Part shown: positions 1 through 59,830 of the stretch, piece by piece | How the letters are laid out: every line of letters starts with the position of its first letter | Position numbering within the stretch: the first letter of the stretch is position 1 | DNA from: a virus | Virus record (IMG/VR): IMGVR_UViG_3300000285_000003 | Length of the DNA: 64,000 nt | Strand: one strand, 5' to 3' | Notes under the pieces: generated by a model | The model's database searches: none | What the model was told of the DNA's origin: nothing | The model's input: only the letters and a program-made list of their open reading frames with translations | Made by a program: the position numbers and the translations under genes

Positions 1-3000
1 GATCTGTGTTAGTCTTTAAGAACGATACGGCGTTCACTATAGCGCTTTGCTATTCTTTGTTGTAAGTAATTCCTCCAGACTTACCGGTTGATCTAACAGT
101 GGTGACATCAGTATTCCTTACAGGAGATTCTGCTTTGGTTTCTTTCGGTTCTAGTTTCTTTGCGTTAATATAGAATTTCTATTTAACTTCTTCTACAAGT
201 TTTGCATATTGAGCATCATTCTCTTGATAACCAATATAATTCATACCAAATCCAAAGTCGCTATTACCAAACTCAAATATATCATTGCCTTTAAAATGTA
301 ATCCCTTCTTCTTACATAGTACATAAATCGGAACTTCTGTTAGGCTTACGTTTCCTGTATCTTTATCTTTGATTCCATTAAATTTACTAACTCCAACCAA
401 TCTGTAAAGAGATCTATTTACATTATTGTTGTACTTATCAGACAACTCATCCTTTACAGTAATATATCTAGGGTATTGCCCATTATCAAGTCTATTGATA
501 GTAGTGACATATTCTGAATTTTTGTCCAATGCATAGCCACATAAAGCAAATGGCTTCATTAACTATGGGTCATATATTCCAGAGTCAGTAAAATTCTTTC
601 GGCCTTTTCGTTCATAATCGTACTGTGGTACAAAATCGGTATCATTCCAATTATTTCTAAGTATATCATCTATAATAGCCTCTCTTATGCTTGGCTCAAG
701 ATTTGTATTAAACTTATTTAACCAGAACTCTACATGTCCAACAAATCCGCTATTAATCTTCCATGAGTTAGGAACATATTTAAAGAATCTGTTAAAACCA
801 GATTTCTCACCAGATGTTAACCATGCGTAAACTACAAGATCTCTAGCAAACTCCTTTAACTCCTAATCGTCCGGATAATTAAGCAATTCTTCCCAAGCAT
901 CAGTTAAGTCATCCTGGTTAAATGATGATTCTGATATACTGTGGAATGTACTAACAAACTTAGGAGCAGGATAAGTCTATCCATTAGCGCCTGTCGTTGA
1001 TTCATCTTTAACCTAATCTGATTCTACGAGCGATGTAAGCAGTTTGTTATTTCTTAAGTAGAACAATTTATCATCTGGATTGTTGATCCTACGCTTTATG
1101 CCAGCAAGCCTGTCAGCTATTGTATTGTTACCAAAGAATAATCTATTAACGTCTATCTTATTATTATCTTCTACTGCATAAGCTCTAATAAAGAGTGATT
1201 TAATACACTGTGAAACATTTCTATCTAACTTGTTGGCTATATCTTCTGTCTATGAATAATTGTTCATAAACTGACCAAGCTAACCAACTAATGAAGTATA
1301 AGATGTAGTAGCCTCAAATACCTATCCAGCAAGAATACTCTTCATTGCTTTCATAAATGAATTAGTCTTCTTATCAATCCAAGAATGTGTCATCATTTTC
1401 ATAACGCCTTCTGGTTCGAAAGATGTGTTACCTTGCTGAATATCCTTTAAGAACTAATCGTACTTCTCTTTATATAATAGCTATTTAGCAAGCGTATTTC
1501 CCTGCTTCTTTGTATCGATCTTAGTAAGCTGTACGAGTTTTGAGATATCATTTACAAATGGCTGTAATATATTCCATGCCTTATATACCTGCACCTAAGC
1601 TCTACAAAAATCTGGATCTTTTAACATATCCTCCTTATTAGTATATTTAAGAGCGTAATTCTTAAGATATTTTTCGCTATCAAACATACTATTTATTATT
1701 CTGATAGGAGAATTATTTTTTGCAGCATTCAATATGTGCTATTCCTTATCGAGCTATTTTTGTATTCCAATTCTAGCTTCATCGGATGTAGCTTCCTACA
1801 AATTGCTAGTAAGCATTCGTACCCTATCTTCGATCTAATCAATTTCATCCAAAGAATCGAGTCTTACGCTATTTATAAATCCTAATTCCCTTGTAACATC
1901 TTGACTATATAATTCATTTCCTTTACCAAGATAGCCAGCTATGTATTGCCTAAGAGCTTTCTCAGTAGCATCCTTCTAAGCTCTGTATTTACTCTTTGTT
2001 AAATCTCTACCATAGTGTCCACTAGCTGCTTCTGCAGCGAATGCCATATCCTTAATAATAGGCTACGTGATAAACCAAACGGAATTATCAGCCTAACCTG
2101 TTCTAACAAGGAAATTAAGCATATTATATGTAAAGCTATTTACGTTTATCTTTGATACATATGGATCCTTTACGATATCACAGTGAGCATTAATAAATGC
2201 TGACAGCCACGACATAACAGCATTACCATTCTTGTCATCACGTAAGTCTATACGTTTGAATGGTGTCTGCTTAGTAAATTCTGTCTCCTTTAATTTTACT
2301 CCGTAAGCCATAGTAAGAGCCTAATTTGTCACATTAAGAGCAAATGGTGCGATACCAAGCTTACCTGTAATATAATCTCTACGTCTATCTGTCTACTCGT
2401 GAAGTGTATAGAAATTGTATGGCAAAGTTTTAGTTGAACCAGCACTATCAAATTGATTAGCTATATTCTAAACAAGATCAGTATCGTTATCGATAGATCT
2501 CATAGCTATCTGTATAGAATTATCATTATCCTTAAGGAGTGTCATGTAATTCTCAAGAAGTTTGTTTTGATAATACTACTTCGTGCCTTTAGGGAATTCT
2601 CTAGTTGCTTTACTATCCTTAACGTCATATGCTAATGATGCAAGATAAAGTTTATCGATATCGAAGTCGGATCCAGTTACTTTGGTAAACTCTCTAGGAA
2701 GAATAATTGTATCTTTTACAACAGGAAGTACATCTACAAAGCGTAAAGCATGTATAGATGATTGAGCCTATGTAGGAATACGGTAACCAATAGTATTGGC
2801 TTTTACATCACTTCTGTTGCCTATAATCTTATTATCAAACAACCATTTTCTAGCCTAATCAAAAGACATGCCTTTTGGTATTATATGCTCAAAATAGTCT
2901 ATAGATATAACAGCGTCCATACTGCCATCATTATTGATAAACTGAAGCTGTTTTCCTTCATTAAGAGTCTACCAATTAATGATCTTTCTAGCTGCTGCAG

Positions 3001-6000
3001 GTAACGTATCGTACTCATCATCTGATACGATATGTCCCTCCATAGCGAATACAGATCTCTGATAGAATGCGTTTCCTGGAGTCTTAACATCTACAATCCT
3101 CTTATTAAGAGCAGATGTAAGAATACTCTCTATCCAGTGTGGATCAGACTGAGCAGCAAGCGGTACATTTAAGTGTTTGCTACCATCTGCATCAACCTTA
3201 ATAGTAATAGCGTCAATTGTATTCTTGTTAGCATTTCTTGACGTAAGCTCATCATTTAAGAATTTAGCGAACTTTTGTATATCAAACTCTCCATCAGTAA
3301 AGAACAAATCATCTACTTCTTTAACTCCCATATCGGAAAGCTAGTTTATAGAATCCATGATATTATCAAGAATCTAAGATCCAGATATAGCTTCGCCTGT
3401 AAGAGAATCTGTATAGTTAACTCTATCAATAATTAAACTGGCAAGTGCTACCTTAGCAGTCTATGTACCAAGATTCATCTCAATCTTTCCATTAGGGTCG
3501 GTATTAAGCTACTTTCTAAGATATCTAAGATCCTATTTGAATGTAACAAATGGCTCTTCTATACCTTTACCCTGTTCAAATTTAGAGTTATGCTTGTTAC
3601 CAATCTTTACAGCAGAATCAAACAAAAGCATATCTACGCCTTCGTTTATCATCTTATTGTATACCTTGCCCATATCTCCCATTGCGATAGATGGGAATAT
3701 AGGGAACAATGCCATCTTATTATAATAAGGTATAAGTAGACTGCCAAGTCGTTCATCATTTCTGTGTCCAAATGCACTATACTTCTGAGCTCCAACAATA
3801 AATTCCTAAAGCTCTGTAAACGCATCTGCCTTCTATCTGAATGTATACTGCTTATTTGGGTCTCTAAGCATAGCAAACAGCTATTTGGCTTTATTGCTAT
3901 ATAATCCAAGAGACCTTAAAAGCTTTTCACACATCTTATCTGTAATGAATGCAGATCCATCTGCTACATTTATAGGGTCTTTAGCTTTAGGATCATATAT
4001 CTTTCCAGCATAAGCTTTATATTCTGCTTGATATTTCTTAGTAACTCTAGCCTTGTCGTTTTCGTCAAGATATTTGTCTCTAAACTCTTCGAAATCTTTT
4101 TGTGTTTTATGTTCTGCGTAAGCTATATCTGCTGCCTCTTTCTTACTTTTACCACTACGCACAAGTTTGTTGTATACAGCTTCTTTTGTATTAGCTTGCA
4201 CAAACATCTTTTCGACACTATTCTGGTAAGCGTCATCAATGTTACCATCGTGCATCTTGTCAGCTTCAGAAGAGACCATAAAATCATCAACCTGCGCACA
4301 TGTGTACTTCGATTCAGAGTCATCCTGGAAGTCGGTTCTAGGGTTAGCTCCGGTAGAAATAAGTCCTCCAAGACGTTTTAACTGGTCAGTTTGTCTATCT
4401 TCTAGCTCGTTCTCACTATACTACCATTTATAGAATGCAGGGTGACCACCAAATAGTCTTTCTACTTCTTGTACAGAAATAATAGATCTTGTAGAAACAT
4501 CTGACATCATTGCTACAACTGCCGCAGCATTCAGCTATTCAATAGTTTTAATACCTTCTGTTCCAGCTAACGAATGCCTAATACAGCTAAACTCATTGTA
4601 GCTTAGACCAACATTCTCTAATGAATAATAGTTGTCTACATCGCCTTTAATGAGCCCTAATTTTATAGCCTTCTTAACTTCTTCTTTAAACTGAATATCA
4701 AGAACTCTAGCCATAATATTTCTCTATTGTTCTCTACTCTTATTAAAGAACTATTCATCAGCTAATTTCAGGCAGTCTATACTACTCTTTTTAGGATCAT
4801 TAAACTTTATTCTGTTGCCATTGTCATCAAGTATGGATGTAAGTGACGAGAATCTTGTACCATTAGGCTCTACCTTTACTGTTTCACCTTTACTGTTTAC
4901 ATACTTATTAGGCGTATGATAATTCTTTATCTTTACAGTATCATCTATAGCTGTATCACCTTCAAAGTATCCAAGCTGATGCATACATTCAAGTATAGCT
5001 GCCTTTTCATCCTTAGCGTAGTCTATAAATATATCCAAAACCTAATCAGATGGTCTTACTATAGTCTTACCAGTTGTATCTGTAACTATTCTAGGGAGTG
5101 CTCCAAGTAACTCTTTTCTAAGAGCTGATTTTTGATCTTTATCAGAACTAGATATAAGTTTATTTATCAGCCTATAATCTATACCAGGAATCAAAAATCC
5201 GTTAATAGCTTGATCCGAAGCCTGTAAATACATATATGTCTTTTTATCAGACATTGTAGGATAAATCAATCCTCCGCTAATAAGCATTGTAACCTTAGAC
5301 ATGTAATCCTCTATATTTGAAACCTAGTTATAATCGGATCCGTAGTCGTCATTCTGATCAGTCTTAAATCCGGCATAGTTATTCATAAGAATCTTCGCCA
5401 TCTTATTTCCTTCGTTCTGAGCAATCCTTCTAAGGACTATTGAGTGCTTATTATAACAGAAATTCTAGATTCTCTACTTAGCTTCATTATTAGGATTTTC
5501 GTCCTATATATCAGCAAGTATATCTGATACTGTATTATTCTCTCCCTGTGTATATGCCTTGTTATTATTGGTTAAGAGGTTCATCATCTCATTCTTAACC
5601 TTGTTATTCATAGACTGATACTTAGCAAGCTCATTTACAAATGAATCTTTATTATATAATGTATCAAGCTATACTTCAACCTATCCAGCATTTCCTATTA
5701 CAGAATCAAGAAGGTTCAAAAATTTACTCAAACTTACAAGAACTGTTTCGTTAAGCATCTATCTAAATGAATCGGCACTAAACTCTCCGTACTTATTAAT
5801 AAGCATATAGTTAATGGTATCGCTGTCAATCTATATACCTATCTTATTAAGTGTTATAGTAATCTTATCTATAACTTCAGACAACTATGCAGGGCTTGTA
5901 ATGTCATATGTATTGTTACCTATCTTTATGTCATTTCCAGCATTTGCCTAAGTCCATATTGATTTAATCCAGTTTGATGTACGTTTAAATATATCCTTTC

Positions 6001-9000
6001 CAGGAGCATTGTATACTACACCGTTCTTGTCTCTATTGAATAATATTCTACCTTCCTAATCTTTCATTGTAGATACAACTCCAGTAACGCCATTAGCTAA
6101 TCTCTTTGACCAATCCTGTGAAAACTTAAGTGTGTCCCTATCAACTGATAAGTTTGACATTCTTATACTTACATTTCCATCTTTGTCTGTAGAAGACCTA
6201 GTCATCATAAAGTTATATTTCTGACCAACCAATGCCTGGAATACTTGTGTTACAACAGCCTCTGCGTTATAGTTGATTCCTTCTCCGGTTGTCTTATCAT
6301 AATCTATGTATTGAGCCTAGAAATACTCATCAAACGTAGAGTATACATAGAAGAACATAGGGTCCTATGAAGCGAGTCTAGCTAATTCGTCATGGAGTTC
6401 TTGAACAGTCTTTACATTGTGAAGCTATTCGAACATCTTACTAAATACTTCAGTCTAAGGCATAAATCTAGGATCACCAAACAAGCTGTGTGATGTATCA
6501 AGTTCAATGCCTTCTTCATGATTATTGGCATTAGCCCACTTAACATATGGTACAGTTCCAAAGAAGAATTTAGCTTTTTGAGATACGCTTTGCAGCTTAC
6601 TCATTTCGTAAGACTCCTTGCCAACATAATCCATATAAGCTCCAGCAGAACCAGCTTCAAGCTGTTCCTACATATCTTCGTCATTAGTATTTCTAACAAC
6701 ACCTTCTTTGCTTATGTTAGCAATCTTAGCATACACTCTATCGGCTATAACAGCAAAGTTTGGATAATACTATTCCTTTCCTATAGCTACTCCATTTTTA
6801 TCAGTTATATACTTCTCTTTGCCTTGCTTAAATATTTCCTGGAATGCTTTAGCCTAAGCTTCTGGTACCGGAACTTCTGGATCTTCACCCATAAGCTATT
6901 TCATCATATCTACACCGATAAGCTTTTTAATATTTGTACCAGTAATTGTAAGTTGATCTATATTATCTCCAACAGCATTAACTCTTCCTTCTTCGAGAGC
7001 CTTCTCTACTATATAAAAAGCTATAGTTTCAACGCAATCGTTGAGCTGCTCGTTGTTTAAGATATTTTCGAAGCTATGCTTCATACCAGTCTTCTGATTG
7101 TAAACATCATAATGAAGAGAATCGCCAAACTTAGCTTTAAAACGCTCAAGGTTTTCTTTACGTATATTGCTTCCTGCTTTTGTTTTGTACCAGCCAGTAG
7201 ACATTATTGCTGACAAAAGTGTAAGTCTAATACTTCCGAGATCCCTAGCAAATTGTACACCGGCTTTAATCTTCTAGAAAAGAGCTACTACCTTATTATT
7301 GGAAAACTCATTATCATCGTAGTTGTTTTGAGCATCCATATACAGATTTGCTAATCCTTCTGCAATCTCTGTATCAGACATCTTATCATTACCTTCTCTA
7401 CTCTTATACCAATCGTATATCTTCTGTCTTTCAGATGGTCTTAGCAACAGCTCCAATACTCTATGGAATGCTTCGTGATACTGCACACCGTCTACAACTC
7501 TATTACCAATGTAAACCATGTCTGACATACATTTTCCGGCAACAGCCATGTCTGCAGGTATATCGTCATTTAACTATTTACCTATCTCATAGTTACCTTC
7601 ACCTATAACGCGCTTTAAATACGCATTCATTTGCTCTCTATCACCATCTGTTATATCTCTAAGCTTATTAGGCTAAACCTCTAATTTTAGTCCTCTAGAT
7701 CGATTTAAAAGATTTTTGAGAGAGTTTAATCTAGGCATTGAGATTGAATCTTCTTTTTGCCGCTCAGTGAGTATATCGTCTATACGATCATCTTGTTTTG
7801 TATTAGGAACCAAATATGGGCCTCTAAAATAAGTGGCAGTATAATTCTAACCGACAACAGATGTCTAAGTGTACTGATGGCGCATAAGGTAACCAGCGTA
7901 TGTACTCTTTCTTCTTTCATTTCCATCCTGGTCAAAGAAATCATCTCTGCTAAACTCTAAGCCATTTGGAGCAACAAATGTATCAACATTAGGGTTATCT
8001 TCAAAGTAATGCTTTACGTTGTTTATAACAGAGTTGTTTGTAAAGTTAAGCTATTGACTAAGCATAGTCTTTTCGAAAGCAACACCAACAGATCTTAAAT
8101 CTGTTCTGAGTCTCTCTAAGTCATGCTCACTTGTAAGATCGTATGATTCTCCAGTTCCATATATATGCTTACCATTGTCGTCGTACTGAGGTAATCCTAT
8201 AATAATCTATTTGTTTGAAGAGAATGTTATAGTTCTAGTCTGATTTGTTTTATAGTTAGGCTAATTATTTTCATTAACATGTACAAGCATCTTAATAAGA
8301 TCATATGTATTGTATCCGTTATAATTAACCTATCCCTAAGCATAAGCTCTTAATAAGTCTACAAGAGAATCAGCTTGATTCTAAGAAAGCTTAGACTGAT
8401 ACAGTATAACTGGAATTGTAGTCTAGTTACCTTTCTTCTCATCGAAGTTTGTATGCCATAAATATACAGTAGAACCTACTGATGTATTCTGTGTTCCAAC
8501 CCTAGCACTATTTAAAGTATGTATAGGACTATTTAAGCCATCAAGACTCATTACGTTCATATTACCTTTCTTGTCCTATTTTACTATACCAATCTATTTG
8601 CTCTTAAGGTCAATAGAATACGTATCATCAAGACTCATTATGTTTCCAACAACAGAATGTAAACCCTCTACTGTTGGAGAGTTTTCATTATAACCAACAA
8701 ATGCAGGATCATAAATAAGCGATCCATTTGTTCTTGTAGGTATAACTCTTAATGAGTAATTCTTATGCTTCTAGCAGAACTTCCATAAATCGACGAGATG
8801 CTGCTGATATCCCATTCTACTTTCGTCACCACCTTCATATATGTGCAATTCTATAGACTGTCCTTTGTATGTAATTCTTAAGTAAGGTCTATTGCTGTAC
8901 TCTGTAGCATTTCTGAATATAATCTCAAACTTACCGTTAGTAATAAAGTCTGGCTAATTACTCCACTCTACATAAGTCTTGTTTTCCTACATGGCTTTTA

Positions 9001-12000
9001 CTCCAGGTCTATGTAATGTTGTTCCAACGCCTTGACCAGAGATATAATTATTACCACCAGATTCATACCACATAAACTCCTGCTTATTAAGCTCTTCTGA
9101 TTCTCTAATTATGGAAGCGTCTGTGTCAATGTATGAGTCATCAAGTTGCTTTCCATACTTGTTAGCAAAGCCAGATATAAGCAATCTACCTCTATTAATA
9201 TTGTCCTAAAGGACAGGATTCATAGGGTTATCTGGATTCTGTTCAATATAATCTTGAGCATTATTAAGCAACATTCCGAAGTAGTTCTTAAGTAACCTCC
9301 AATACCAATCAGATTCAACTTCACCAAGATTCTGTTGGAATTTATTTCCATACAGTCTCATGTAATCTGTTATCTTCTGATTATAATCAAGTGTAAGATT
9401 ATCACTTCCATTTGTGATTGTGTTTCTACTATCTCTTGGAAGTACTACGTTGCCTTTTGCATACTTAGTAAACCACCAATCAAGTATTTCTTCGCTAGTG
9501 TCTCCCCATATAGATCTATTGTTATTAAACTTCATAATAACATTATCTATGAGGTCTCTCTCCTAAGAAACATTTACAGCCTAAGCTTCATTATCCTGCA
9601 ACAGATTATCAAGGGCTATTTCTGCTCTCATTAACTGTATAGACAAATCGTTTATAGCGTCTCTTTCTGGCTATGTAGTAGGTTTTACATCAGCTATTGT
9701 GCTAGATATTGAGTCAAGTGTATTGCAAGCATCTTCCAACTCGAGGACTAACTATGCTACAGTCTTTGGAAGATCATTATAGTCTGTTACGAGCGGATCC
9801 TGTGGAATTTCTTTCTAGTCGTTAAGATTGTTTAACTAGTCAGTAAGATCGTTGTATACCTAGTTTGTGTTCTGTATTATGTTACCAAGCTGCTTTATAG
9901 CGTCTTTTAACTAGTCTTCAGTTGCAAGCTTATCTATATCCAGTATATACTGTGATATACTCGTCTTATCAAATGGAGTTAACGACTAATCTGCAATCTT
10001 CTGTATAGCTGATTCAATATTGTCTATGTTAGACAGATTCTGTTTTACCTGCTGTACTAGCTTGTCTACATTTTGCTTAAGCTGCTCAGTCTGATCTGTC
10101 TTGTCATTTTTAAGATAATTCTAAACACTTCCAACACTAAGAACATTCTCTTCTGAATCAAGATTCTCAGCAACAGTGCCAGCCTATTCTTTAGATTTAC
10201 TAAGATATACATATGATAACATTCCGCTTAAATCTGGAATATCCATAGCATCTAATGGCATATCTTTAATATCATCAAGAAATGTCTTAAACGAATAATA
10301 TCCCTACTATGTACCATAGGCAACAAGTTTTGCAAGAGTTGATAAAAACTTAGGGCTTATACCAGAATAAGCTTCACCAGATCTAGCCCACTCCTTGATA
10401 GCAGCTTTCATCTTAGACTTGAGAAGTCGTTTCTTAGCCTCTATCTTAGCTCTTCTTTCATTTCTCTCTTGTCTTTGTTCAGAAAGATTATTAAGCCTTT
10501 CAAAGGAATCTGCTAATTCGTCATCAGGTTTAGATTTATCTACAATTGCTCTATTAGGTTCCAATCCTGCATTAAGAAGCTAATCATTGATATAATCTTC
10601 GATTATTCTAGCATTGTCTTCATTTCTGGTAATAATGTTCTTATATCTCTTAGAAGACTATAGCCATCTATTTATTTTATCATAGCTTCTACCTCTAAGG
10701 ATCATGTCATCAATCTTGCCCTTGAGTTTTCCTACGGAGCCAAGCTTGTCTTCTTTTATCTTGAGTTCAAGATCATCATGAACATAAGGTCTATCTGTAT
10801 TCTCAAAAGTATTATTTTCTACAGAATAATTGTTTTCCGGAGTATATACTTTATTTTCCTACTTTGTAAGAGATTCTACATGAGACTATGTATCTTTGTG
10901 CTCTGTATTTATTTCTCCAGTAGAAGTATTGTCCTGGTTCCACTTTTGTCCATAAGGATCATTAATAGCATCTGCTAAAGCCCAATCTATTGCCTTATTT
11001 CTCTCTGTGGTAGCCATGACGTCGTCTATGAACTTACTGAATTTAGTGTTACCATTTCCTTCAGCTTTTAGACCATCGGAGAACATCTTCTATCTATCCG
11101 CTATAAGATTTGCGTCTGCATTAAGAAGAGCTCTTACTCTTGTATTCTCCTCTATGTCATCAGAGAACTACTCAATAGCTCCCATGGCGTCAAGCTTATC
11201 CATTACTTGTGCATCATTAAGGCCATCAAGATTGATACCAGACAGCTCAGACAGTCTCTGAGAGATAATCTTTATATCACTATCTATAGACTTGTGTATT
11301 TTAGCAGCATCTTCTCTTATAGTATGCAATCCAAACTTATCTCTAAGCATATTGAAAAATCCGTCAGAAGTCTTGCAATCTGATCTAAGCTTAAGCAAGC
11401 CTCTAAGCTATCCTACAAGTATAGTTCTTTGACGAAGATCCTCAACGTTGCTTATTCCGGTAGGACCTGTCATTCTATTGAGCTTATCCTATTCAGACTG
11501 TGCTGATATCAAATCTACTTCCTAGCCTAATTCCTCAAGAGACTAAGCATTCTGCTCTGCTTCTTGTCTAGCCTTATCAGCTCTCTGCTAAGCAAGACTC
11601 TCTATAGATGATCCACTCTATCTTCTTCTTAATTCCTCATCAATAGCTTGATTAAGCTGTACCGAATGTATAATCTAATTATATTCATCTATAGCCTTCT
11701 GTCTCTAATCTCTGTTCTCGTCAGAATTCTAACCAGTCTAATATACAGATGCTACAGCTGCAGCATATTTATCTGTACCATATTGTATGCCATGCTTCTC
11801 CATTATAGCCTTAGTAGTAGGGCTTAATGTCATTCTCATTATGTCCTATGCCGCTTTTATTGAGGAGTCCCACTCATCGCTTGAGTAAGTATGCTCCTTT
11901 CTTCTAGCGTCCTCCTATTTAAGCTATTGCATAGTATTTAAGATCTACTCCATATTAGATCTACCTTTCATGGCTTCTTTTGCAAACAGCTGTCCCTAAG

Positions 12001-14449
12001 CTCGTTCATTTTGCATCATTATACGATTGGTAATACCGGCATTAAGTATTGCCTAATCTGCTGATATCTGACGTACAAGTCCAGGTATTTCCGATACAGC
12101 TCTCATCGCAACGGTATGACCGCCTCCAAGAGCAAATCCTCCTTTATAATTCTACCAGAACTCTTCATTGTCAAGGAGATCGCTATCTCCTATTCCTAAT
12201 TCAGCTAATATGGCGGCCTGTGTTCTTGAGCCTGCGCTATATTCATTTGCAAACAAACTACCTAGGCTAGGAAGCTCTCCAAGGCCCATCTGCTGCCTTT
12301 TAGCCTGCTCTGCATTAACATACTGTCTGGCTTCTTCTGCAGCCTCAGAGGCTGAAGAAACAGCCCAAACCTTACCCATTTTTAAGCCGTATGCAGAAAG
12401 TCTTCTTGCTGTCAATGGTATCTTATCCAAGATGTCTTGATAGTACTATCCTGCTCTATGTGTAGCAAGTCTAATAAATGCCTAACCTCTGGTTGGTAAA
12501 GCTTTTTTAGCCTAATCTAATACAGCCTTTCCAATACCTGTCATAGTACCATACACATACTAACCGGTCATACCATGTCCTAATACTGTAGCAGTCTGTT
12601 CTCCTAATCCAAATCCGCCTCTAAAGCTATCTGTGAACTCCTTTCTAAGAGTTGCGTATCTACTACCGTTTACGGCGTCTTTAGCTGCTTCTGCAGCAGC
12701 ATTTGTAGCTGCTCCTTCAACTGTATGCTCTATAGCGCCCGTAGCAGAATTAGCTGCACGTTTAATAGTTTTATTCGCAATCCAGTTTATGGTTCCTTTT
12801 CCAGCTTTGTATAGCTCTCTTCCAAATATACCAACCTGTAAACCCTTCTGTACCATAAGATCTGATCCTGTTGTTATGTTATCTTTCTGGAAAAGGGCAT
12901 TACTTCCAGCAAGTGCTCTAAGCTCAGCCTTTCTGTATTCTGGATGGTTAGAAGTTATAATGCCGGATAATGCACTGCGAAGTATCTCGTCATCGCTTTC
13001 TGTATCTGGATTCATGTTCAGTTTCGGATATGCCTATTTAGCCTTTTCTCTCAAGTCTTTTATTATATCCTGGTACTGTTTCTTGCCACCAGACATTAAG
13101 TTTGATTTAAGCTTATCAACATTAGCATCGCTAACTTCGCCCCTATTCTCAAACTTCATGTTCTCTATATCAAGACCTGTGGCAGTAGTCGCTACCTATG
13201 AGCCAATGTTTAACAAGGCTTGTCCTTTTGGTCCTAAGAACGCACCACCAATAGCAGCTCCAGTATTCAATGCCATAGCTATTCTTCCGGCAGTAGAAGC
13301 GTTAGAAGCAGCTATCTGAGAAGGCATTTCGTACTGCCAGTATTCTGGTGAGAATACACTAGCATTAGCGTATCTCTACTTTTTCTTATTGTAATCGTCG
13401 CTAATTGGGAACCACTTCTCGTCAGCCTGTCTGTACCTTACATGCTTTTCATAATCCTCTTGAGCTCCCTTTATTTCAGCATTAAGCTGAGTCTGGAAAT
13501 CTGTATAGTCATCAATCTGTGCTCTAAGTGAGTCTTTTAAAGGTAAGCCCTAGAATCTCTTTCTGTTGTTATCTATATTCTTGTCATATATATACTAGTG
13601 TGCAGCCTAAGAGAACTTTTCTTTATCATTCATCTTAAGTGTTTTATAATCCTAGTTGTTATGCGCACCATAAGCATTAGATGTATTAAGATAAGCTCCA
13701 GCCTTACCTAATACGTCTAAAAGGAATCCACCTGCACCAGCTAATCCCTCTTTGACTGAGTTCCATACATTATCCATGTCGTGCTGAGCTCGGAGCTGTT
13801 CAGCTCTCTGCTCATACACTTCACCATTGTTTATCTGTTTATCAAGCTATTTAATCTGACTATTTATTCTAATAATGTTCTATTTATCTCTATTTGATAA
13901 GTTAGCCCTATTATTAGAGTAGTCTTGTAATTGCTGCTAAAGTTGTAATCTCTACAACTTTAACTCTTTATTCTTCTTAGCTAAATCAACTGTTGCCGAA
14001 GTTTCCTTATTCAGCATTACTTTACCAGAAGCGTTACTCGCCCTTACCTGATCAGTAGATCTGAATATATCTCCAAGCATTTCCTTGCCTATCGCTGTAA
14101 AATCAAATCCAGGATTCTAAGGTCTAAACAATGGGCGCTCCATAGCAAGCTCATCGTTCACTTCCTTAGCCTTTTTTAATTTATTGTACGTATCAGATAG
14201 GTTTCTAGTTTCACGCTCCTCTCTATTAAGCGATTTGGATACATTTACATAATCTTTGTATCCATTATTTACAACTCGTTGAACAGGAGATGTGCTCTGA
14301 TATCTAGCTAAGTTGCTTCTAAATCTATTTGTAACCCTACTGTACGGCGTACTATTATTACGTCTTATGTACCCGATAGGATCATAAGTACTGCCTTCGG
14401 ATCCCCATGGGATTATACTAGGACTTACGTTCCTTGTTCTGTTTGCCAT
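1..14449 (-). CDS. Giant virion-associated multidomain protein, N-terminal >4,816 codons (C-terminus lies beyond coordinate 1); TAG read as sense
   Basis: I hand-scanned the minus frame (codon low coordinate = 2 mod 3) from 14449 down to 2. It has no TAA or TGA and roughly 128 in-frame TAG. Every real-looking ORF-track fragment on this strand between 179 and 14449 is in this frame and ends in TAG. The ATG at 14447-14449 lies just downstream of the TAA (14455-14457) of the upstream gene. An HEAFH (HExxH) motif is at 7463-7477. The virion/cargo or RNA-polymerase-type role is inferred only from size and position relative to crAss-like genomes. Confidence 0.85.
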
Positions 14450-14454
14450 AATTA

Positions 14455-16248
14455 TTATTTATAATACTGATTGTAACTCTTGTTTATATTTGTCCATTTT
14501 GAAGAATGGGTAGAAGTATCGTAACTATCTATTGTTACATTTCCACCATTATCATACCATTCTGTTCCAGGCATAACTTTTCCTCTATTTACAACCTTCT
14601 TTGTAGTCTTTCCATTCTTATTTTTCTGTGTAGTATAGCTCTTCTTTGTGAAAGATACGTCTCCTGCAGGTAATTCTTGATAAGCTGAATAATGGCCTCT
14701 TTGTTTCTTTAGAGATTTAATTAATGCCTTTCCTTCATCGGTGTCTTCAACTTCTTTGCCTGTAGTTATATTCGTCCACTTACCATCTACCATTTTATAC
14801 TTATTGCCACTATTATCTCTAGATGTGCCATCAGTTGTATATACTGTAACTTTCTGATACAAGTGCATTCTTCCATCTCTTCCAACAATTGCTATACCAT
14901 TTCTAGATGATTCATCAGGGGTCACTCCAAGAATATTGTTCTTCTTATACAATTTATCTGTATAGGTTCTATATACGTTTTTTCCGGTTTTAATAGAAGA
15001 AGCTTTGATTCTAAGCTCACCTTCGGTAAGTATCTTTCCTTTGACTTCGTTAGCATTGTATGCGTATCCGAATGTAGGATTAAGCTTGTTCTTCTGTACA
15101 CCAGTCCAAGCAGAATATCCTCCTCTAGGTAAATCGAATGAAACATCATTTAGATTAAAGCCCTTATTAGAGAATGCTTTTCCTTGTGCTCTAGATAAAT
15201 ATCCTAAGTTATTGCCATAATTCTTTTCTCCAAAAGTATGAGTAGCAAAATAATTCTAAAGCGTAGACGAAGCTTGAGTCATAACATCTGCAACAAGATT
15301 GTAATCATATTTGCTGCCTTCTCCATTTCCTTTAGCTGCCTATTCAGCAATTTTATTAGCACTCTTTTGCTCAGGCTCTTGCGTATCCCATTCATGCTGC
15401 TGTTTTGCCATTTCTCTCTAGAATTCTCTCTGTTTAGCAGCTTCATTAGCCTAGAACTACTGGTCATTGAGATGAACTTTTACCTGATCAGCTCGTCTAT
15501 CTACCTGAGTATACTCTCTGTTACGATTAATAATATCAGCCTTAAGGGCATCTATATCACCTCCATACATGTTGAGATAGTATCTGCCAAGATCAGATTT
15601 TGTCATATCCTTTATATTCGCATCAAGAATCTACTACATCTTCTTAGGAGACTTTGAATATACCTAATACAGTCCTCCAGCTTGTTTTGTTAGCTCTGGA
15701 TCGTATTCTAGCTACATGTTGTCAAACAGATTGCTTGTCCAATCTTTTAAGCTAGAATATTTAGAAGGAGCTTCTCTAGTCCACATTCCATCTGTAGCTG
15801 GATCCCAAGTTTCAAGAGTCTTACCTCCAAGTGCAAACTTCTCAAAGTCTGGATCATATGTACCATTGCGCATAGCCTCTGCCCTATATCTCTAATAAGT
15901 CTTCATTGACTCATTCTGAGCTTTAAGGTTAGCTATTTCTGCATATGGTCTCTCTCTAATAATCTTGGCTATATACGCTCTTCCTTCTGCTGATCTAAGA
16001 GGATCTATTCCGTTCTAATAGAGATAATCTAATCCTTTATTAACAGCCCCCCTTGTGATATCGTAAAACTCTTTATTTACATTAGCATTAGGCCCATATA
16101 GCTCACCGAATTCCTTAGCGAACTCCTTCTAGTCCTATACTGCCTAATTGTATTGTTCTCTTGCAGCACTGATGTACTATGACATCATGCTACTATCCAG
16201 TAGGTCGATTATGGGCACAGCTACTGGTTCGTCATACATTCCTATCAT
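14455..16248 (-). CDS. Hypothetical virion protein, 597 aa (TAG read-through)
   Basis: The ATG at 16246-16248 overlaps the TGA (16245-16247) of the upstream gene (ATGA). The frame stays open to the TAA at 14455-14457 with about 15 in-frame TAG. An upstream in-frame TAA is at 16273-16275. Only the last 165 aa appear in the standard-code track. Confidence 0.8.
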
Positions 16249-17840
16249 TTTCTTAATCTTAAGCTAGTTATATTATATGGGTTATAATCAAATGTACTTC
16301 CAGCCCATGTTGGTAAGAATAATCCATTAGGACCAAATCCGCCAGTATAATCGCTAGAGAAATTAATTCTCTCATACGGTGTACCAAAAGCACCTCTCTA
16401 ATACTATTCTTTTGATTTCGCCCAATTTCTTGTATACTTTGCAGAATCAGCAACCTTGTCAGGATCTATATACCAGTACTTGCCGTATGGCGCTTTTAAA
16501 TTATTTAAAGAATAATCATCATATTTTAAATCAAGTACTCCTCTGTTTATTCCTGTACCCTAATAAGGTATATTAGGTGATACAGAAAATAACTAATACT
16601 GACTAGGAGTCCAGCCTGGAGCTATGTTTCTATAATTAATAGAAGATGATCCAGATGCATTACTTGCTTTATTTATAGATACACTTGCTGCTGTATCTTT
16701 TGAACCATCTGCACCTATACCGTATATTGTTTTTAATGCTTCTTTCTTGTTGTCTACATCCTACTGATATATATCAAGAATATCGCCATACTGCTTGTTT
16801 TTAATGCGTTGTGACAACCATTTCTGACCAATAAGACCAAGATTAGATAAGTGTGTTTCTATACCCTTAGTCTTAGCACCGTGTGCTCTATTGTAAGCCT
16901 CCCATCCATATTGGTTAGACTGCTGTAATCTCTGTGCATCACTATCACCAAGTCTGGCAGCCATCTCAGCATAAGCATTTCTATATGCAGCATTCTTTTC
17001 CTGTACATTCATGAGTGCATCAGCAACATTTCTCTAATTTCCTAAAGCTAAAGCTACTCTATTAGCCTATCTCTGACCACCTGTATAACCACCAGAATTA
17101 GCAAGCTAATAAGCAGCCTGTCTATCTTGTGCATATAGCTTTTCGAGAATAGGATTAGCTGATACTCTATTACCAGCCATTGTCTGTAAAGCTATTGGTG
17201 CATATTTATTAGCTGCATATATATTTGGCATTACAGGATTTTCTCTACGCCAATGATTAAGCATCTATGTTTCAAGCAGTGCTGGTAAAGCATAACCTGT
17301 ATCAATCATAAGATTTGATACCTTTCCTTTTCCACCTGTTGTGTAGGATTTCCAGAAACTTTTTCCTTTATCAAATCTATCTTTCCCGCAATTATGTTTA
17401 ATCTAAGCTGCGTAATCTTCGATCTAATGCTATTTCTCTTGTCTGTCTGTAATATTCTTCATAGCTTGCAAAATAGGGGCCTTAGCGCGATCTAATTGAT
17501 TTTTCTGAAGCTCAATCGTCTACTTTGATAAAGAGCTAAGATCGGATTTCTTACCTGCTCTTTTTTCAATATCATTATACATCTAAAGCTTAGCTGTCAA
17601 CGGGGCTACTTGGTCAGAAAACTTCATTCCATTGCTCCAGTCTATATCGTTACCAGCTATAACATTATTATCATCTCTTCTAACAGAGCTAGGCTAATTA
17701 TCAACCCCAACCTTACCCTTCGTTACAAGAGTGCCGGTACCATTTGTATAATCTATAATAGACTCTCCTTTACCGACCAAACTATTAACCGGACCAGCCT
17801 AATAACCATTAGGTGTCCATACTTTATTTCCCTTTAACAT
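16245..17840 (-). CDS. Hypothetical virion protein, 531 aa (TAG read-through)
   Basis: ATG at 17838-17840, with an upstream in-frame TAA at 17853-17855. The frame is open to the TGA at 16245-16247 with about 16 in-frame TAG. It contains track ORF 16761..17012. Confidence 0.8.
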
Positions 17841-18612
17841 ATCTTGGTTTTCTTAAATCTTTTCCTCGGTTAGCATATAATACATCATCATACGTGTTAC
17901 CATTATCTAAATAATATTGCTATGTAAGGCCTTCTGTTGCAGCTGACGATTGATTAACCTAGTTGATAAGATTAACTTTCTATTGTGCGTTAAATATCTT
18001 TCTACGCTATCTTTCTCTAGCTTTTTTACTTCTAAACAAGCCTCCGAATAATCCTGTGATAGCTCCAACTGCTCCTCCTATAAGTGTACCGACACCAGGT
18101 ATAGCTGAACCTATAGAGGCTCCAGCAGCGGCTCCAGATCCAACCATTCCTAACGTCGCATTTTTATTTGACTTAGATATATCATCCATAGCTTTCTGTC
18201 TGTTGATATCATTCTGTGCTTGGTAATTTACACCGAATGCCTAATCTGTTCTTTGTCCAGAATAAGCCATAAGTTCATCCGTTCCCTTTACTGCGTTCTG
18301 CATGGAATTATATCCTTGTATCATTCCTATTGTTCCATTAACAGCTCCTGTTACAGTACTAGAGCTTATTCCGACTCCTCCTGCTGTCTAAACTACGCCT
18401 TTTGGGTTCCATTTTGAAGCTGGTGTTTGCCCAATATTAAATGACGCGCTAGAACTTCCTACTCCAGCTATAGCTGATCCAGCAGGAGCGTTACCGCCAA
18501 TCATGCTTGCAAGATCATTAGCTTGATACTATTGTCCAAAACCAACTTTTGAATCTATACCATTATTGAATTTTGATATATTATTTATCTTTTTTCTCTA
18601 CTTTAACTCCAT
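17824..18612 (-). CDS. Gly/Ala-rich hypothetical virion protein with a hydrophobic segment, 262 aa
   Basis: ATG at 18610-18612 (upstream in-frame TAA at 18664-18666) and TAA at 17824-17826, with several in-frame TAG. It contains track ORF 18007..18189 (GSGAAAGASIGSAIPGVGTLIGGAVGAITGLFGGLF). Confidence 0.75.
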
Positions 18613-21600
18613 GACTATCTATATTTTGTTATTATATATTGTATTGCCATAGCTGGATTTGGTTTAATATCTTCTATACTGCAAATCATGACCTTACCTC
18701 TAGCTCTATTGCCAAATAATCCATCAGCCCTAGGTATGACAAATCTATGATTATTTTCTCTAAGTGTTATCTGTTCTTCTAGACTAGACTCTATTTTCTA
18801 AGATTCTGTCTACCATGTATATTTATGATTTTTTGAGAAGTAGTCATCCTAGTCGTATATAACATCCTGTAACTATAGATTTTCGTATGTAACAATTTCT
18901 TGATTGTCAAACACCTTTGTAACCAATGGCTATTGAGCAACAACATATTTAACGTAACTTGAAAGTAACTACTGATTTGTTGATTTAGGCGATTCGTCTA
19001 GATAATCGTACTAATACACACATACAGTATCATTCTTCTTTACAAGGTATTCTCCATTAAAGAACTATATAGCTCCATCAAACGGAATAGTTAGTGTTGA
19101 CGTGAATTTTCCAATCATTTCATTGTATACGATTTGCATATCATCGCTTAAAATATTGAATACAACTTCATTGTATTTATTGTTGTAGAATACCTTAAAG
19201 TTATCGTTCTTTTTATACTTGTTCAGTATATTCTATACTTTACCTTGTTTTGAAAGCTATACTACACTCTATCCGTCGAATAAGCAGATTACATTATTAT
19301 GACTATCAAACCAATATAAACCACCTGTAGTACATACTGAACAGAATTGCTGCTTGTGTATTCCATAAGTATTGCTGTAGTAGTCATATCTATCAAGTAC
19401 TCCTCCAGTTCCTAATACTATATTTTGTCCAGAATTATCTGTAGCAACACTACGGTCATTAACACTGAGTACACCAAATGATTGCTCCTAGAAAAATGTA
19501 AGAACATTCTTAAATGTACATATATCAGTTATAGGGCCATATTCCTAATCTACGTCTATAAAGTTAGAGCTTCTAAATTTACACCAGCTATCTATAATTT
19601 CATCATTCTGTTTTAAATCAGAATAATATACTCTTGTATCTATAGTTTTATTATAATCTTGTGGATTAAGATCATCGTACGCAGCAAACGGCATACTTGT
19701 ATTCTATATACTGTAGACAGAATTATAAACGTATTCAGGCTCTTTCTGTACGTAAGCTTCTGTTATTTCACACGGTTCAGACTGTATAAAAGATGCGTAA
19801 TTGTCTCTTGCGTTAGAACTAAGTGTCAATCCATGTTGAAATTTGCACCATATATTTGATTCTGTTGGTATAGAGTATGTTATCATATGAGTATTAGGGA
19901 ATTGTAATTCATCCTTTCCGTTCTTTGTATAAGCTCCATACACTTTATGCATAGATGTATATTCGAATGTCTCTACGTGACAATCTCCATCAAATACTGT
20001 ATTCCATTTATTTTCAGACTCAAAGTAATTACCATCTCCGTAATATATATTCGTAAGTCTATTTGTAAACGAATACCCACCATAAGGAGTTGTTTGCTAT
20101 CTAAGATTGGTTAGGTATGTTCCAAGTAGAGTTGGCCTAATTACTTTTGTGATCATACCAAAATCACTAGATTCTGTCTAATATGGCTCTTCTTCTAGAC
20201 TATCATAATAATTACCATTCTTAGGATAATAATAAGAAAATGCACCAGCTGTACCAGTTTCTTTATACTAACAACTTAACAATAAGCACTTTCCACCAGT
20301 TCCAAAACATACATTTTTATTGAACTTTGCATCAGTTCCATCGCCTTTAAATCCTCCACTATAATTACCAAACGATTCAAATATATTACCATTAGTATCA
20401 TTGCAAATTCCTCCGGTAATCATATTTGTAAATAGCGCTCCACCGGCAGAAATAGCATAATTAGTGTACGTTTTTGATGAGGCCTATTCGTTATTATCTT
20501 TGTTAAAGTTTCTTTTGAACGCCTAATCCCATTTTATTTGATCAACTAACTAAAAGTCCTATATATAATTTATCTAAGATTTTCCAAACCAATCATCATT
20601 AGATGCAAAATTACCATCAAAAAAATCCTATACACCAGCACTCTGTTCGTACAATTTTATATAAGCAAAGGCCTTCTGTATTATGAATTTGCCAGATTTT
20701 TCCTTTCTTTTATTAGCAGACTAGTCATCATTATTATATAGTCTATCAAAATTTAAAATGCAATCTTTTATTAATGCATAAGAATATGGCCTATCATATC
20801 CAAGACCACCAATAGAAGCGTAATCGGCCTCGAAACCAATATATGTTATACCTTTATTTTTATACGACTAAGGATTAATCCTGTAAAAATAACTTGTGTT
20901 ATATGGTGCATCTAAATAGCATATTGGACTATTTTTTGAAATCTTATTTATAACATCTATATCATTAACATGGAAAGTCCCCCTTGCATCACCATCATCG
21001 TTTGGTCCAGTAAATAATTCTACAGCACAGTTTGAAATACATGGTATTACAAACTTAAAATTTCTCCTATTGTTATGACCAATCAACATTCCATACTCTG
21101 TATTTGTATATCCATTCTTAGGAGAATCATACTAGTCGTCATTAAATTTATGGTCACCTCTTGCTCCAAATAAAAAAGACTATTTTTGCAAATAATATTT
21201 TTTGTCTTTTATAAATTGTTTAAATGATTCTGGTTGATAACAAACTTCCTTTGAAACAAATTGCAATAATTTGTCATTATCTATGTTTGTCATACATTGT
21301 GATGCTAAATCATCTCCTTTCCAAACAAGCTAATTATGTACATTGTATCCTTCTATAAACTTATTTGTTGTTAAAAACCCTGTTGGGCAAAACATATGAT
21401 ACTTAGTTACATAATATTCATTATTTTTCCCCTCATACTGTCTACTATAAGCATTAGATACAGGAGAACTAAGTACACCTTGTGATATTGTAGCGATATC
21501 AGATTCATGTCTAGCACATCTAACTATTTGATAACCAGTACAGCCTTCTGGTAAACTTTTTACCATAAACTGTATTCCAAGATTTCTGATAACTAGTTCG

Positions 21601-26165: not shown

Positions 26166-26587
26166 TTTATCTCAATAGTTACATTTCCGTTAGAACAAGC
26201 TTCCTTTATTATTGGATAAAACTTGTTTATAGTAGCTCTTGAGTTAAGGACTTTTCCAACCTATTTGTTTTTGCCGAGAATCAAACAGCCTTCAGTGTCA
26301 GCGCTTGTGTTTCCTGCGTGAATACGTATACCTTCAAATGATGGAACGTTCATCAGCTGTGGTGTATACTTCTTAAACCTAGGTGAATATGTCCACTTGA
26401 TCTCATAAGTTCCGTAAGGTATTGCCGTTTTGGAATGTACCTTTTTCTCTCCATTGTCAAATTTGCCATTCTTATTGAGGTCTCTTACAGTATCTTCTAT
26501 AGTGTCGCAAAAATATACATCGTCTATATAAAGTTTTCCTATAGTGTAAGTTGGACGGAGAGCTATTCTTTTTAATGTTAATTTCAT
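26162..26587 (-). CDS. Putative cell-wall hydrolase / endolysin candidate (YkuD-like H..GN..GC motif), 141 aa
   Basis: ATG at 26585-26587. Track ORF 26261..26587 ends in TAG, and the frame continues to the TGA at 26162-26164. The motif IRIHAGNTSADTEGCLILG resembles the His/Cys catalytic signature of L,D-transpeptidase-fold enzymes. The gene sits immediately upstream of the holin-like gene. Confidence 0.55.
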
Positions 26588-32500: not shown

Positions 32501-34077
32501 TCCTTTTTTACAAAATTTGAAAAAACCTACAATAGGTGATATTTTGTAAGATCATCTTTATTCGCATCATTTTGCTTTTGCACATAGCAATCTACGAACG
32601 AACTACCTCTAGTTGTTAACTGCTACCCTATTGTCATAATTGGAGAATCTCCCTCGTTGTACAAACTTATAATAGTAGCGTTATCAGAGTTTATATGATT
32701 AAACTGTAAACCGATAGCTATATGTGTACAAATATTTCCTGTACCACTAACCTATGGAGGTTCAATACCTGTTATTCTAATAGCATTAGAGTTAACAGTC
32801 TAAGATATACTTGTATTAGCTAAATACTAATTAAAATTATCAGTACAAGTATTTATTCTGTAATAGTACTATGTCCACTGCTACGGATTTTCAAACCAAT
32901 CAAGCTAATCCTCGGATTCTTTTACATAAAAATAATATTTGGCGCTGTACCCAGAAACGTTTATTTCAATTGTGTTTTCCCCAGATTTTGTAGCAAGAAT
33001 CTTAAATGAATTCTATTGACGCTCTGTTACGGTAAGACCGTTTTCAAACATTTGTACACCGTTAACCTTTACGAAAACATTGTAACTTCTGTTATTATTT
33101 ATGCCTTCATAGATTCTGAAGTTAAACTAAATATACCCAGGATTGTAAATATACTACCCCTCAGTCTATTGTGTATTATATATAACACCGACATCTGGAG
33201 ATATTAAACAGTATAATTCGTTAGGTATAAGAGATATATTTATAGTTTGATCATTGGATATCATTTCCTAGCCATCTGGTATAACCTATGTACTAAATAC
33301 GGCAGAGTAAAGTCCAGATTTATCGTTTGTAAAATTACTCTTATCTATAGGAAATGTAAGAGATCCACTTTGATTTTCAATATTTCCAGAGCCTAAATCC
33401 TATCCATTAAATCTAGCCGAGTAGTTTATTGATGCTGAAACGGAAACTACGTAGTCAACTTTTATATTAAGACCAGTATCTCTTGCTGTTTCTATAAAGA
33501 TCTCATACGTATTGCTATCTGTTAAATATTTCTTTCCATTATCATCAACAAGTGATACATCGAACGAATATGGTGTAACAATGTACTAGCATGATACCTG
33601 CTATGTGTCATTACCATCTGTTACAGTAATAGTAAGCGTGGAGTTTGTATTAAGATTAATATTTGTCTAAAATCTAAACGCATTTTCGATAGATAAAATC
33701 TAAGTTCTTGTCTGAGTAGTTTCTCCACCATTAGCAGTTTTGGTTGTATACGAGTATGTTACATTAAACTTGCCACCATTTGGGTTGTTTATTATAATAA
33801 GAAGCGGATATGTATCTATTCTGTTAAGGACAATATTTTCGCCCTTAAGCTGGATACCATTAAGCGAAGCAAATACACTAAATGATTTATCGTTGCCTCC
33901 ATCTCCATTACCAGAGCCAGAACCGACTCCGCCATATTTATAAATCCACTTAACATTTGTTTTAAGCGAATTTACATCATTAGTTATAGACGATAATTTG
34001 TCGGACAGCGTTGAAGAGCCATCCGACATTATTATATCGTCATCACTAACAATCTTAGAATTGTTATTTAATCTCAT
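26584..34077 (-). CDS. Very large tail-fibre/adhesin-type protein, 2,497 aa, with a leucine-rich-repeat-like region
   Basis: The ATG at 34075-34077 overlaps the upstream TGA (ATGA), and the TGA at 26584-26586 overlaps the next ATG. A hand scan of the frame found no TAA or TGA. Ten track fragments (26668.. to 33700..) share the frame and end in TAG. The N-terminus has a coiled-coil segment and a Gly-rich segment. LRR-like repeats lie in 29317-29868 (for example NLTSPGYTATLTLNGADNYPNLSSINLSGSKM). Confidence 0.8.
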
Positions 34078-44992: not shown

Positions 44993-45010
44993 AATATGTT
45001 AATTGTCTCA

Positions 45011-59335: not shown

Positions 59336-59360
59336 AGTATTCAAATATTATTTTTTATTG

Positions 59361-59431
59361 TTACCCCACTAGGATTCGAACCCAGACTAAGAGTTTTAGA
59401 GACTCCTGTGCTGCCGTTACACCATAGGGCA
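59361..59431 (-). tRNA. Amber-suppressor tRNA, anticodon CTA (reads UAG); Gln-type identity plausible
   Basis: The 71-nt cloverleaf folds as follows. Acceptor stem TGCCCTA/TGGGGTA (U1:A72). D arm GTGT-AACGGCA-GCAC. Anticodon arm GGAGT-CTCTAAA-ACTCT, a 7-nt loop with T33 and anticodon C34 T35 A36. Variable loop TAGT. T arm CTGGG-TTCGAAT-CCTAG. Discriminator A. No CCA is encoded. Confidence 0.9.
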
Positions 59432-59437
59432 ATAAGC

Positions 59438-59474
59438 GCGTAACTTTTATCTGGAGTTACGCAGAACCAGTATT
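59438..59474 (-). repeat. Hairpin/pseudoknot motif, copy 1
   Basis: On the plus strand, GCGTAACT-TTTATCTGG-AGTTACGC forms an 8-bp stem with a 9-nt loop, then AGAA, then CCAGTATT. The loop CTGG is complementary to the downstream CCAG. Confidence 0.6.
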
Positions 59475-59610
59475 AGCGCCATTTGGATCCTGCAGCTCCG
59501 AGCGCCGCTAGGGCAGAAAGCTTTTGTTTCACCCGGATATCCCAGTTTATAGAGATTTCAGAAATGGCGACAACCTCTCAGCGATTATATTCGCCCGTCT
59601 TCTTTGACTC

Positions 59611-59643
59611 TTATAAGTTTTAGCTGGACTTATAACCAGTATT
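59611..59643 (-). repeat. Hairpin/pseudoknot motif, copy 2
   Basis: On the plus strand, TTATAAGT-TTTAGCTGG-ACTTATAA forms an 8-bp stem with a 9-nt loop, followed directly by CCAGTATT. The loop and flank match copy 1 except for one loop base. The stem sequence is entirely different but still fully paired. Confidence 0.6.
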
Positions 59644-59746
59644 GGGTCCCTGTGTCAGCTTACCATGGTAGCCTTTTGTTTATAGTGTACACACAGGGAT
59701 GCCACTCATATTATCAATCTAAATATTAAAAAAAATGAATATGTTG

Positions 59747-59820: not shown

Positions 59821-59830
59821 CTAAAGGTGA

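Follow-up and report, generated by a model that had tools for sequence, protein, structure and literature searches.

Polymerase genes encoding up to ~6000 amino acids (aa) have been described as a hallmark of the crAss-like phages (PMC10136315), and Yutin et al. (PMC7886860) described a transcription block of large multidomain proteins carrying a DxDxD motif, together with recoding of TAG as glutamine in delta-group genomes. The crAss-like polymerase gp66 from Cellulophaga phage phi14:2 has a solved structure (PDB 6VR4); its biochemistry and virion location were reported by Drobysheva et al. (bioRxiv 10.1101/2020.03.07.982082), who also mentioned a three-protein fusion of gp65, gp66, and gp67. 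Fusions of virion RNA polymerases with zincins belong to the "polyvalent protein" theme of Iyer et al. 2017 (PMC5512222). Here, we analyze a 64,000-nucleotide (nt) stretch of viral DNA, the IMG/VR record IMGVR_UViG_3300000285_000003 (hereafter, the window), whose first 14,449 nt hold a single open reading frame (ORF) that runs off the left edge of the window. All coordinates are those of the window, and the giant gene and its features lie on the minus strand.

We propose that this frame makes up the 5′ four-fifths of one late gene, that it comes from a gut crAss-like phage of the delta group (Suoliviridae; Oafivirinae, Burzaovirus-like) whose late genes read TAG as glutamine, and that the gene encodes a virion-packaged, multidomain "transcription block" protein of ~6,000 aa. 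We place the probability of this reading at about 0.9. The original prediction, made from the letters alone, had claimed a frame of more than 4,816 codons with about 128 internal TAG codons and neither TAA nor TGA. An automated frame scan returned exactly these counts: the stretch that starts with the ATG at 14447..14449 and ends at nt 2 comprises 4,816 codons, 128 of them TAG, with no in-frame TAA or TGA anywhere between nt 2 and 14449. The other five frames across the same 14.4 kb carry 172 to 563 TAA/TGA codons each, and the chance of 4,816 codons without either stop is ~1e−123. The start codon is located 5 nt past the TAA of the upstream gene (14455-16272). The same N terminus (MANRTRNV) begins the protein of a Logan assembly (P0012), which is 99.44% identical to all 4,816 window residues. 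The visible part of the gene (aa 1-4816; 2..14449, with TAG read as Gln) is delimited on its left by the window edge, and its assignment rests on the frame scan, on collinearity with relatives, and on P0012.

The nearest annotated relatives of the giant gene are found in Suoliviridae, where the orthologue was deposited as one gene: cr109_1 gp53 (4,328 aa), cr6_1 gp36 (4,400 aa), cr118_1 gp14 (4,946 aa), cr7_1 gp32 (5,443 aa), cr130_1 gp79 (5,801 aa), and cr272_1 gp23 (6,386 aa). The window protein is collinear with the RefSeq orthologues, including cr130_1 gp79 and cr272_1 gp23, and shares with them the HExxH and DFD(I/V)D motifs, the gene order, and, wherever tested, a C-terminal superfamily 1 (SF1) helicase. 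Most of the orthologues also carry in-frame TAGs by the dozen, and every one ends at TAA. The amino acid identity to the window protein is, however, just 23 to 38%, and the N-terminal half can be aligned only with cr130_1, cr131_1, and cr272_1. The orthologue cr118_1 gp14 has no TAG in its 4,946 codons, and, therefore, the single long ORF does not depend on the assumed recoding. The giant frame is one ORF and is kept as one ORF in its relatives, including the TAG-free one, which agrees with the earlier claim of a single gene.

The names under which the orthologues were deposited (DprA-like, exonuclease V, DNA helicase, nuclear pore-like, and hypothetical) nowhere mention a polymerase; among the records NC_055899.1, NC_055901.1, NC_055872.1, and NC_055894.1, for example, the names are "DNA helicase," "DprA-like DNA recombination-mediator protein," "exonuclease V," and "nuclear pore complex protein-like protein." Because the cr124_1 record is linearized inside its giant gene, its annotation covers no more than the C-terminal 2,626 aa, and ~7.7 kb at the opposite end are left without a matching coding sequence. 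Rejoining the gene across the record ends breaks the frame at the junction, and only the C-terminal 2,626 aa were compared.

The protein was also predicted to run past the left window edge, and in the P0012 phage it does: that protein has 6,000 aa, which puts ~1,184 aa beyond the edge. In more distant relatives, the part missing from the window amounts to 844 to 1,297 aa, and the full length of the window phage's protein is estimated from these relatives at ~5,660 to 6,113 aa. The missing 3′ end was recovered only via protein-level relatives and an exhaustive HMMER search: the exact 44-mer from the window edge has no match in IMG/VR, and megablast of the giant ORF against a phage collection returned none. 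A HMMER search with the TAG-free piece aa 473-629 detected only six relatives, P0012 among them, in 1.84 billion representatives. With the C-terminal third of the protein, tblastn matched 130 phage records, all of them crAss-like where named, including phages of Bacteroides, Flavobacterium, and Cellulophaga.

Single-sequence searches of the 4,816-aa protein gave nothing significant in Pfam or PHROGs, and phmmer of aa 1922-4816 gave nothing significant against PDB; the polymerase was found only with a family profile built from the region and its relatives. This profile matches PDB 6VR4, the phi14:2 gp66 structure, over gp66 723-1715 (E = 2.1e−70). Direct blastp comparison with gp66 recovers two segments, window aa 3660-3954 against gp66 1113-1387 (5e−18) and, in the trigger-loop region, window aa 4082-4136 against gp66 1603-1658 (6e−8). 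Family hidden Markov models (HMMs) are collinear with gp66 232-1776 (in the segments 232-829, 853-1689, and 1677-1776) along window aa ~2620-4760, which we assign, from homology along its length, as a gp66-like two-barrel DNA-dependent RNA polymerase module (170..6592). The homology is strongest at aa 3300-4200 (nt 1850-4552). These matches bear out the earlier suggestion that a virion RNA polymerase lies inside the giant protein.

The original prediction had located no catalytic motif of the DxDGD type, and in this it fell short: the motif is present as DFDID (aa 3928-3932; 2654..2668), within TGSDFDIDKLY aligned to gp66 TGSDFDIDKMY. The crAss-like polymerases have DFDID instead of DxDGD, with Ile, not Gly, in the fourth position. 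The motif is conserved throughout the orthologues and is opposite gp66 1361-1365, where all three aspartates are essential in vitro (bioRxiv 10.1101/2020.03.07.982082). Alignment further places the region between the barrels that corresponds to the gp66 Connector at aa ~3639-3795 (3065..3535; gp66 coordinates from Drobysheva et al.), a region aligned to gp66 945-1094 just ahead of it (aa ~3455-3638), the region aligned to the gp66 bridge helix at aa ~4015-4045 (2315..2407), and, by both blastp and alignment, the region aligned to the trigger loop at aa ~4077-4115 (2105..2221), where SAFINAHCDIVKDPYV is opposite gp66 SAFLNAFVDNAKDPYI. By sequence, then, the DFDID motif, the bridge helix, and the trigger loop are conserved.

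In addition to the homology over gp66 ~232-1776 and these catalytic elements, the two genes share their genomic position after virion and tail genes. The giant gene follows TerL, portal, major capsid protein (MCP), IHF, tail tubular protein, and a g071-like virion protein, as in phi14:2; the predicted location after tail and virion genes is consistent with the synteny of both phi14:2 and cr130_1. Whereas gp66 is a free-standing protein of 2,180 aa, the polymerase here is one module of a chain of ~6,000 aa: it is preceded by ~2,250 unrelated residues and an HExxH module and followed by a helicase/effector tail. The two differ also in that identity is only 17 to 29% and that phi14:2 uses the standard code.

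One close relative, L009 (IMGVR_UViG_3300013947_000026), has a ~900-nt insertion (7785-8683) immediately before the FDIDKLYL codons, inside the catalytic DxDxD site. Rfam identifies the insertion as a group I intron (RF00028; 49.8 bits versus a gathering score of 50, E = 2.5e−11), and it is split by a 242-codon ORF at 7924-8652. The polymerase gene of the window is without such an insertion.

The N-terminal ~2,250 aa (7700..14449) have no recognizable domain. No Pfam or PHROGs match was obtained for them, HMM comparison detected no similarity to phi14:2 gp65, gp68, or gp69, and a hydropathy scan revealed no strongly hydrophobic segment. The N-terminal half matches only the Oafivirinae genomes cr130_1, cr131_1, and cr272_1, with weak matches to cr109 and cr118; within it, a submodule at aa ~300-1130 (11060-13552) is conserved within Suoliviridae. 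At the border between this lineage-specific half and the start of the gp66 homology is a candidate zincin-like metallopeptidase module (aa ~2290-2400; 7250..7582), recognized by an invariant HExxH...E motif: HEAFH at aa 2325-2329 (7463-7477), followed 35 residues downstream by Glu2364 (7358-7360). Six orthologues, although just 20 to 26% identical in the region, all keep residues H2325, E2326, H2329, and E2364. A search for homologous proteins with aa ~2187-2754, which include this region, returned nothing. In the gp65 family, an HExxH region is zincin-like according to Drobysheva et al. (bioRxiv 10.1101/2020.03.07.982082).

No result contradicts our identification of the gene, but the interpretation has weaker points. 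The N-terminal 47% of the protein has no detected relative outside Oafivirinae. We asked whether the N-terminal half might be a fused phi14:2 gp67; it takes up the gp67 position, but family HMMs show no similarity to gp67. For the HExxH...E module, when both motifs were aligned profile to profile (hhalign) against the gp65-family HExxH region, the probability was only 57%, the profile of the region found chance-level matches only in PDB, and a single-sequence model of a 99-aa piece (predicted local distance difference test score [pLDDT] of 64) had no significant Foldseek match. For the polymerase core, a 52%-identical homologue was modeled with a pLDDT of 45.6; the top Foldseek match of this model is 6VR4 (probability 0.91), but with a template modeling score of just 0.16, which is meaningless. 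Finally, the C-terminal tail differs among close relatives, so the length of the protein can only be estimated.

Of the alternatives, the most probable one refines our reading rather than excluding it. The single chain would act as a polyprotein, and the HExxH...E module, or a separate gp65-like HExxH domain, would cut it, while still in the capsid or once ejected, to yield an N-terminal ejection protein, a polymerase, and helicase/effector pieces. The invariance of HExxH...E in six divergent orthologues and its position at the junction of the N-terminal half with the gp66 homology are consistent with this possibility, as are the Lys/Thr/Ser-rich linker between polymerase and helicase (65-169) and the existence of the phi14:2 polymerase as a separate 2,180-aa protein. 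Drobysheva et al. regard fused versions as "likely cleaved" (bioRxiv 10.1101/2020.03.07.982082), and Iyer et al. (PMC5512222) proposed zincin autoprocessing in virion RNA polymerase polyvalent proteins. However, the PDB profile and fold searches lend the peptidase fold no support, the HExxH motif could instead be part of an effector that acts on host targets, and N4 gp50 works as a full-length protein of ~3,500 aa (PMC13434306). We regard cleavage as a realistic possibility, at somewhat less than even odds.

Whether or not it is processed, the chain continues past the polymerase. After the linker, the last ~21 aa in the window (2..64; YNKEQQSAIV...) are the first residues of an SF1 RecD/Pif1-like helicase, with the Walker A motif and the remainder beyond the window: in the relatives L006 and P0012, AAA_30 and UvrD_C_2 domains begin at this YNKEQQSAIV sequence, and cr118_1 has the same polymerase-helicase fusion. 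The effector modules described here (NADAR and DUF1848) are beyond the window edge and were read from the relatives P0012 and L007. Behind the helicase, P0012 has DUF7831, then a Rossmann-like module with GGAYGGD, and then NADAR. This tail varies in close relatives: P0012 has NADAR (E = 4e−15, within aa 4817-6000); L007, which is 89% identical, has in its place a 409-aa insertion with DUF1848 (E = 5e−24); and L006, L009, and L010 have neither. NADAR enzymes reverse DarT-type DNA ADP-ribosylation, and free-standing phage NADARs neutralize DarTG1 (PMC11825919, PMC11543638). Because NADAR reverses this modification, the P0012 tail could serve, once injected, to counter DarT.

Close relatives terminate the giant ORF with TAA and, a few nucleotides on, start a distinct gp65-family gene of ~1,830 aa; in the window phage, this position is beyond the edge. 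We therefore rejected the idea that the gp65 orthologue, which is VP02740-like and has a zincin HExxH, is fused in the same chain, and the protein is not the complete three-protein fusion of Drobysheva et al. In L010 (13,704-15,818), the frame after the stop of the giant gene is open for 705 codons, versus the 1,830-codon gp65-like gene in L006, L007, and L009, which suggests an interruption or a different arrangement after the giant gene.

This domain composition resembles that of the polyvalent proteins. An RNA polymerase and the start of a helicase are found in the window, a helicase, DUF7831, and NADAR in P0012, and the context is that of late genes. With N4 gp50 and other polyvalent proteins (PMC5512222), the window protein shares the late-gene location and the combination, in one giant protein packaged in the virion (here by inference), of an RNA polymerase with an HExxH peptidase-like module and further enzymatic domains. 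In contrast, the N4 polymerase is T7-like and single-subunit rather than two-barrel, is unrelated in sequence, and has its peptidase after the polymerase, whereas here HExxH precedes it. In Thermus phage P23-45, as described in bioRxiv 10.1101/2022.12.01.518664, a two-barrel virion RNA polymerase is likewise part of a giant multifunctional virion protein (5,002 aa); its fusion partner is the tail tape measure of a siphovirus, whereas the phage here is podovirus-like, and no tape-measure similarity was found in the giant protein of the window.

By analogy with phi14:2, crAss001, and N4, we suggest that synthesis of the protein would be late, when the suppressor tRNA has been expressed, and that the product would be packaged in the capsid and enter a Bacteroidota host, probably Prevotella/Segatella, by ejection along with the DNA; the polymerase module would then transcribe the early genes. 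Prevotella (Segatella) copri is the host of delta27 phages (Gulyaeva et al., bioRxiv 10.1101/2021.06.01.446427). The roles of the other parts are less certain: the N-terminal ~2,250 aa probably have a packaging or ejection function, cleavage of the polypeptide into functional pieces may be the task of the HExxH module, and the C-terminal enzymes could act on incoming DNA or against host defense. It is also conceivable, although we consider it unlikely, that the chain serves as an "infection starter kit" in a single molecule, with counter-defense enzymes as its C-terminal modules, which the virion delivers and which are exchanged in the manner of cassettes.

We next consider whether the frame is one protein at all. 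If TAG terminated translation at least in part, and internal starts gave separate smaller proteins, the region would be a series of short genes, and gene callers do see it that way. The original prediction expected about 20 standard-code fragments of at least 60 aa, with most of the protein missing; close to this, we obtained 15 such fragments with ATG starts, or 17 with ATG/GTG/TTG, which cover 30 to 34% of the giant protein, and 27 stop-to-stop stretches of at least 60 codons. Public gene callers likewise output fragments for the relatives (P0001-P0011, P0013-P0015). However, these fragments make up about a third of a frame that is conserved over its whole length. The longest TAG-free run in the frame is 180 codons, and TAGs at aa 3894 and 3958 flank DFDID; hence, termination at TAG would cut the polymerase core into non-functional pieces. 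Nor are TAG positions kept as stops: they swap with CAG and CAA in relatives of 89 to 96% identity. Given also the TAG-free cr118_1 orthologue and the encoded cognate tRNA(CUA), we consider separate proteins very improbable.

The swaps were examined in the five IMG/VR contigs that carry the giant gene, four of which have an unbroken frame and were aligned (89 to 96% protein identity). Non-conserved TAGs of the window ORF are opposite CAA or CAG in 107 of 141 cases (76%), and in the reverse comparison, relatives' TAGs are opposite CAA or CAG of the window ORF in 77 of 92. P0012 has Gln at 128 of 128 TAG positions. These comparisons support the earlier assignment of TAG to glutamine, and within the giant gene TAG is then the commonest Gln codon (128, versus 97 CAG and 56 CAA). 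The giant genes of relatives terminate at TAA. A suppressor tRNA with anticodon CUA was found by ARAGORN on the minus strand at 59360..59431; it is identical to the cr130_1 tRNA-Gln(UUG) at 53 of 72 nt, with almost identical D and T arms, and is derived from tRNA-Gln. Reading of the 128 TAGs requires this tRNA. Recoding extends beyond the giant gene: within 14455-59347, in-frame TAGs are present in nearly all large ORFs of the minus strand, and with TAA and TGA as the sole stops, this strand becomes a dense array of long ORFs.

Decoding of TAG as another amino acid (pyrrolysine, Glu, Lys, or Tyr) could be argued from the label "tRNA-Pyl" that ARAGORN gives this tRNA and from the minority of non-conserved TAGs that are opposite Glu, Lys, or Asp codons. 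The label, however, is due to the anticodon CUA and reflects it alone, whereas the tRNA body is that of a phage tRNA-Gln. CAA and CAG are one transition from TAG, yet other such codons are rare opposite it, and three-quarters of the non-conserved TAGs face a Gln codon. Metaproteomics also supports TAG = Gln in a Suoliviridae phage (review, PMC10136315). We therefore judge a non-Gln reading to be highly unlikely.

The use of TAG varies along the window. The MCP gene (43457-44998, minus strand) has no TAG in 513 codons, while its neighbors have 2 to 62 each; hence, the late gene with the highest expression may avoid recoded TAG. Past the suppressor tRNA (59,400-64,000), there are no more long ORFs with TAGs; both strands carry small TAG-free ORFs, and the sign of the GC skew flips at ~62 kb. 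Here, the late block with recoded TAG may give way to genes in the standard code.

The giant gene belongs to a divergent part of a mosaic genome. From ~15,414 to 64,000, the window is 96.8 to 98.2% identical in nucleotide sequence to the RefSeq Burzaovirus genomes cr7_1 and cr124_1, and its MCP is 99.6 to 99.8% identical to theirs in amino acid sequence. To the left of ~15,414, neither cr7_1 nor cr124_1 matches the window at the nucleotide level; this side comprises the giant gene and the 3′ part of gene 14455-16272. Nucleotide comparison thus places a breakpoint inside the gene upstream of the giant ORF (15400..15430), and identity resumes past the gp65-like gene. The three genomes carry three alleles of the giant gene, with 27 to 31% protein identity among them. 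Gulyaeva et al. (bioRxiv 10.1101/2021.06.01.446427) found four types of transcription module in the delta27 cluster and attributed them to recombination; because the pattern has been described, we do not present the sharp mosaic boundary as a new finding. In comparison with those module types, the breakpoint of the window allele is located at ~nt 15,414 within the upstream gene. Although a divergent cassette in an otherwise 97 to 98% identical genome could resemble a mis-join, an assembly chimera or decaying pseudogene is the least credible explanation of the long frame, given that five IMG/VR contigs, which come from several samples, and an independently built Logan assembly share the allele and its junctions, that 14.4 kb contain no stop or frameshift and keep the catalytic motifs intact, and that module replacement at exactly these borders has been published for delta27 phages.

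Two observations concern genes further upstream. ORFs 17824-18663 and 16245-17852 (minus strand) overlap by 29 nt in different frames and jointly match one 724-aa gene of cr130_1 (gp77). A frameshift error at 16245-18663 was considered and dropped: cr124_1 annotates the same two overlapping genes, one of them as "glycine zipper, peptidoglycan-associated," and the overlap is therefore a feature of the lineage. Inside the 2,506-codon ORF 26584-34101, 37 nt at ~30,801-30,837 are 97.3% identical to records of the Prevotella megaphage Lak-A1. This is the only match outside crAss-like phages, and it may be due to chance or to a shared host-related element.

Our findings have to be set against what is already published: giant crAss-like virion RNA polymerase genes, TAG-to-Gln recoding in Suoliviridae, and recombinational replacement of transcription modules. 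The window gene adds a new allele to a kind of gene that is well described, and a near-identical copy (P0012) is already public. As an example for annotation, it demonstrates that gene calling in the standard code breaks up a 6,000-aa gene, leaving pieces that cover about a third of it, and that the names of the RefSeq orthologues conceal a polymerase. If the C-terminal modules are indeed counter-defense enzymes delivered by the virion, an enzyme fused to the polymerase would shield the incoming genome before any phage gene is expressed, and the replacement of a ~25-kb transcription block between genomes that are otherwise 97 to 98% identical would reflect defenses that target injected proteins.

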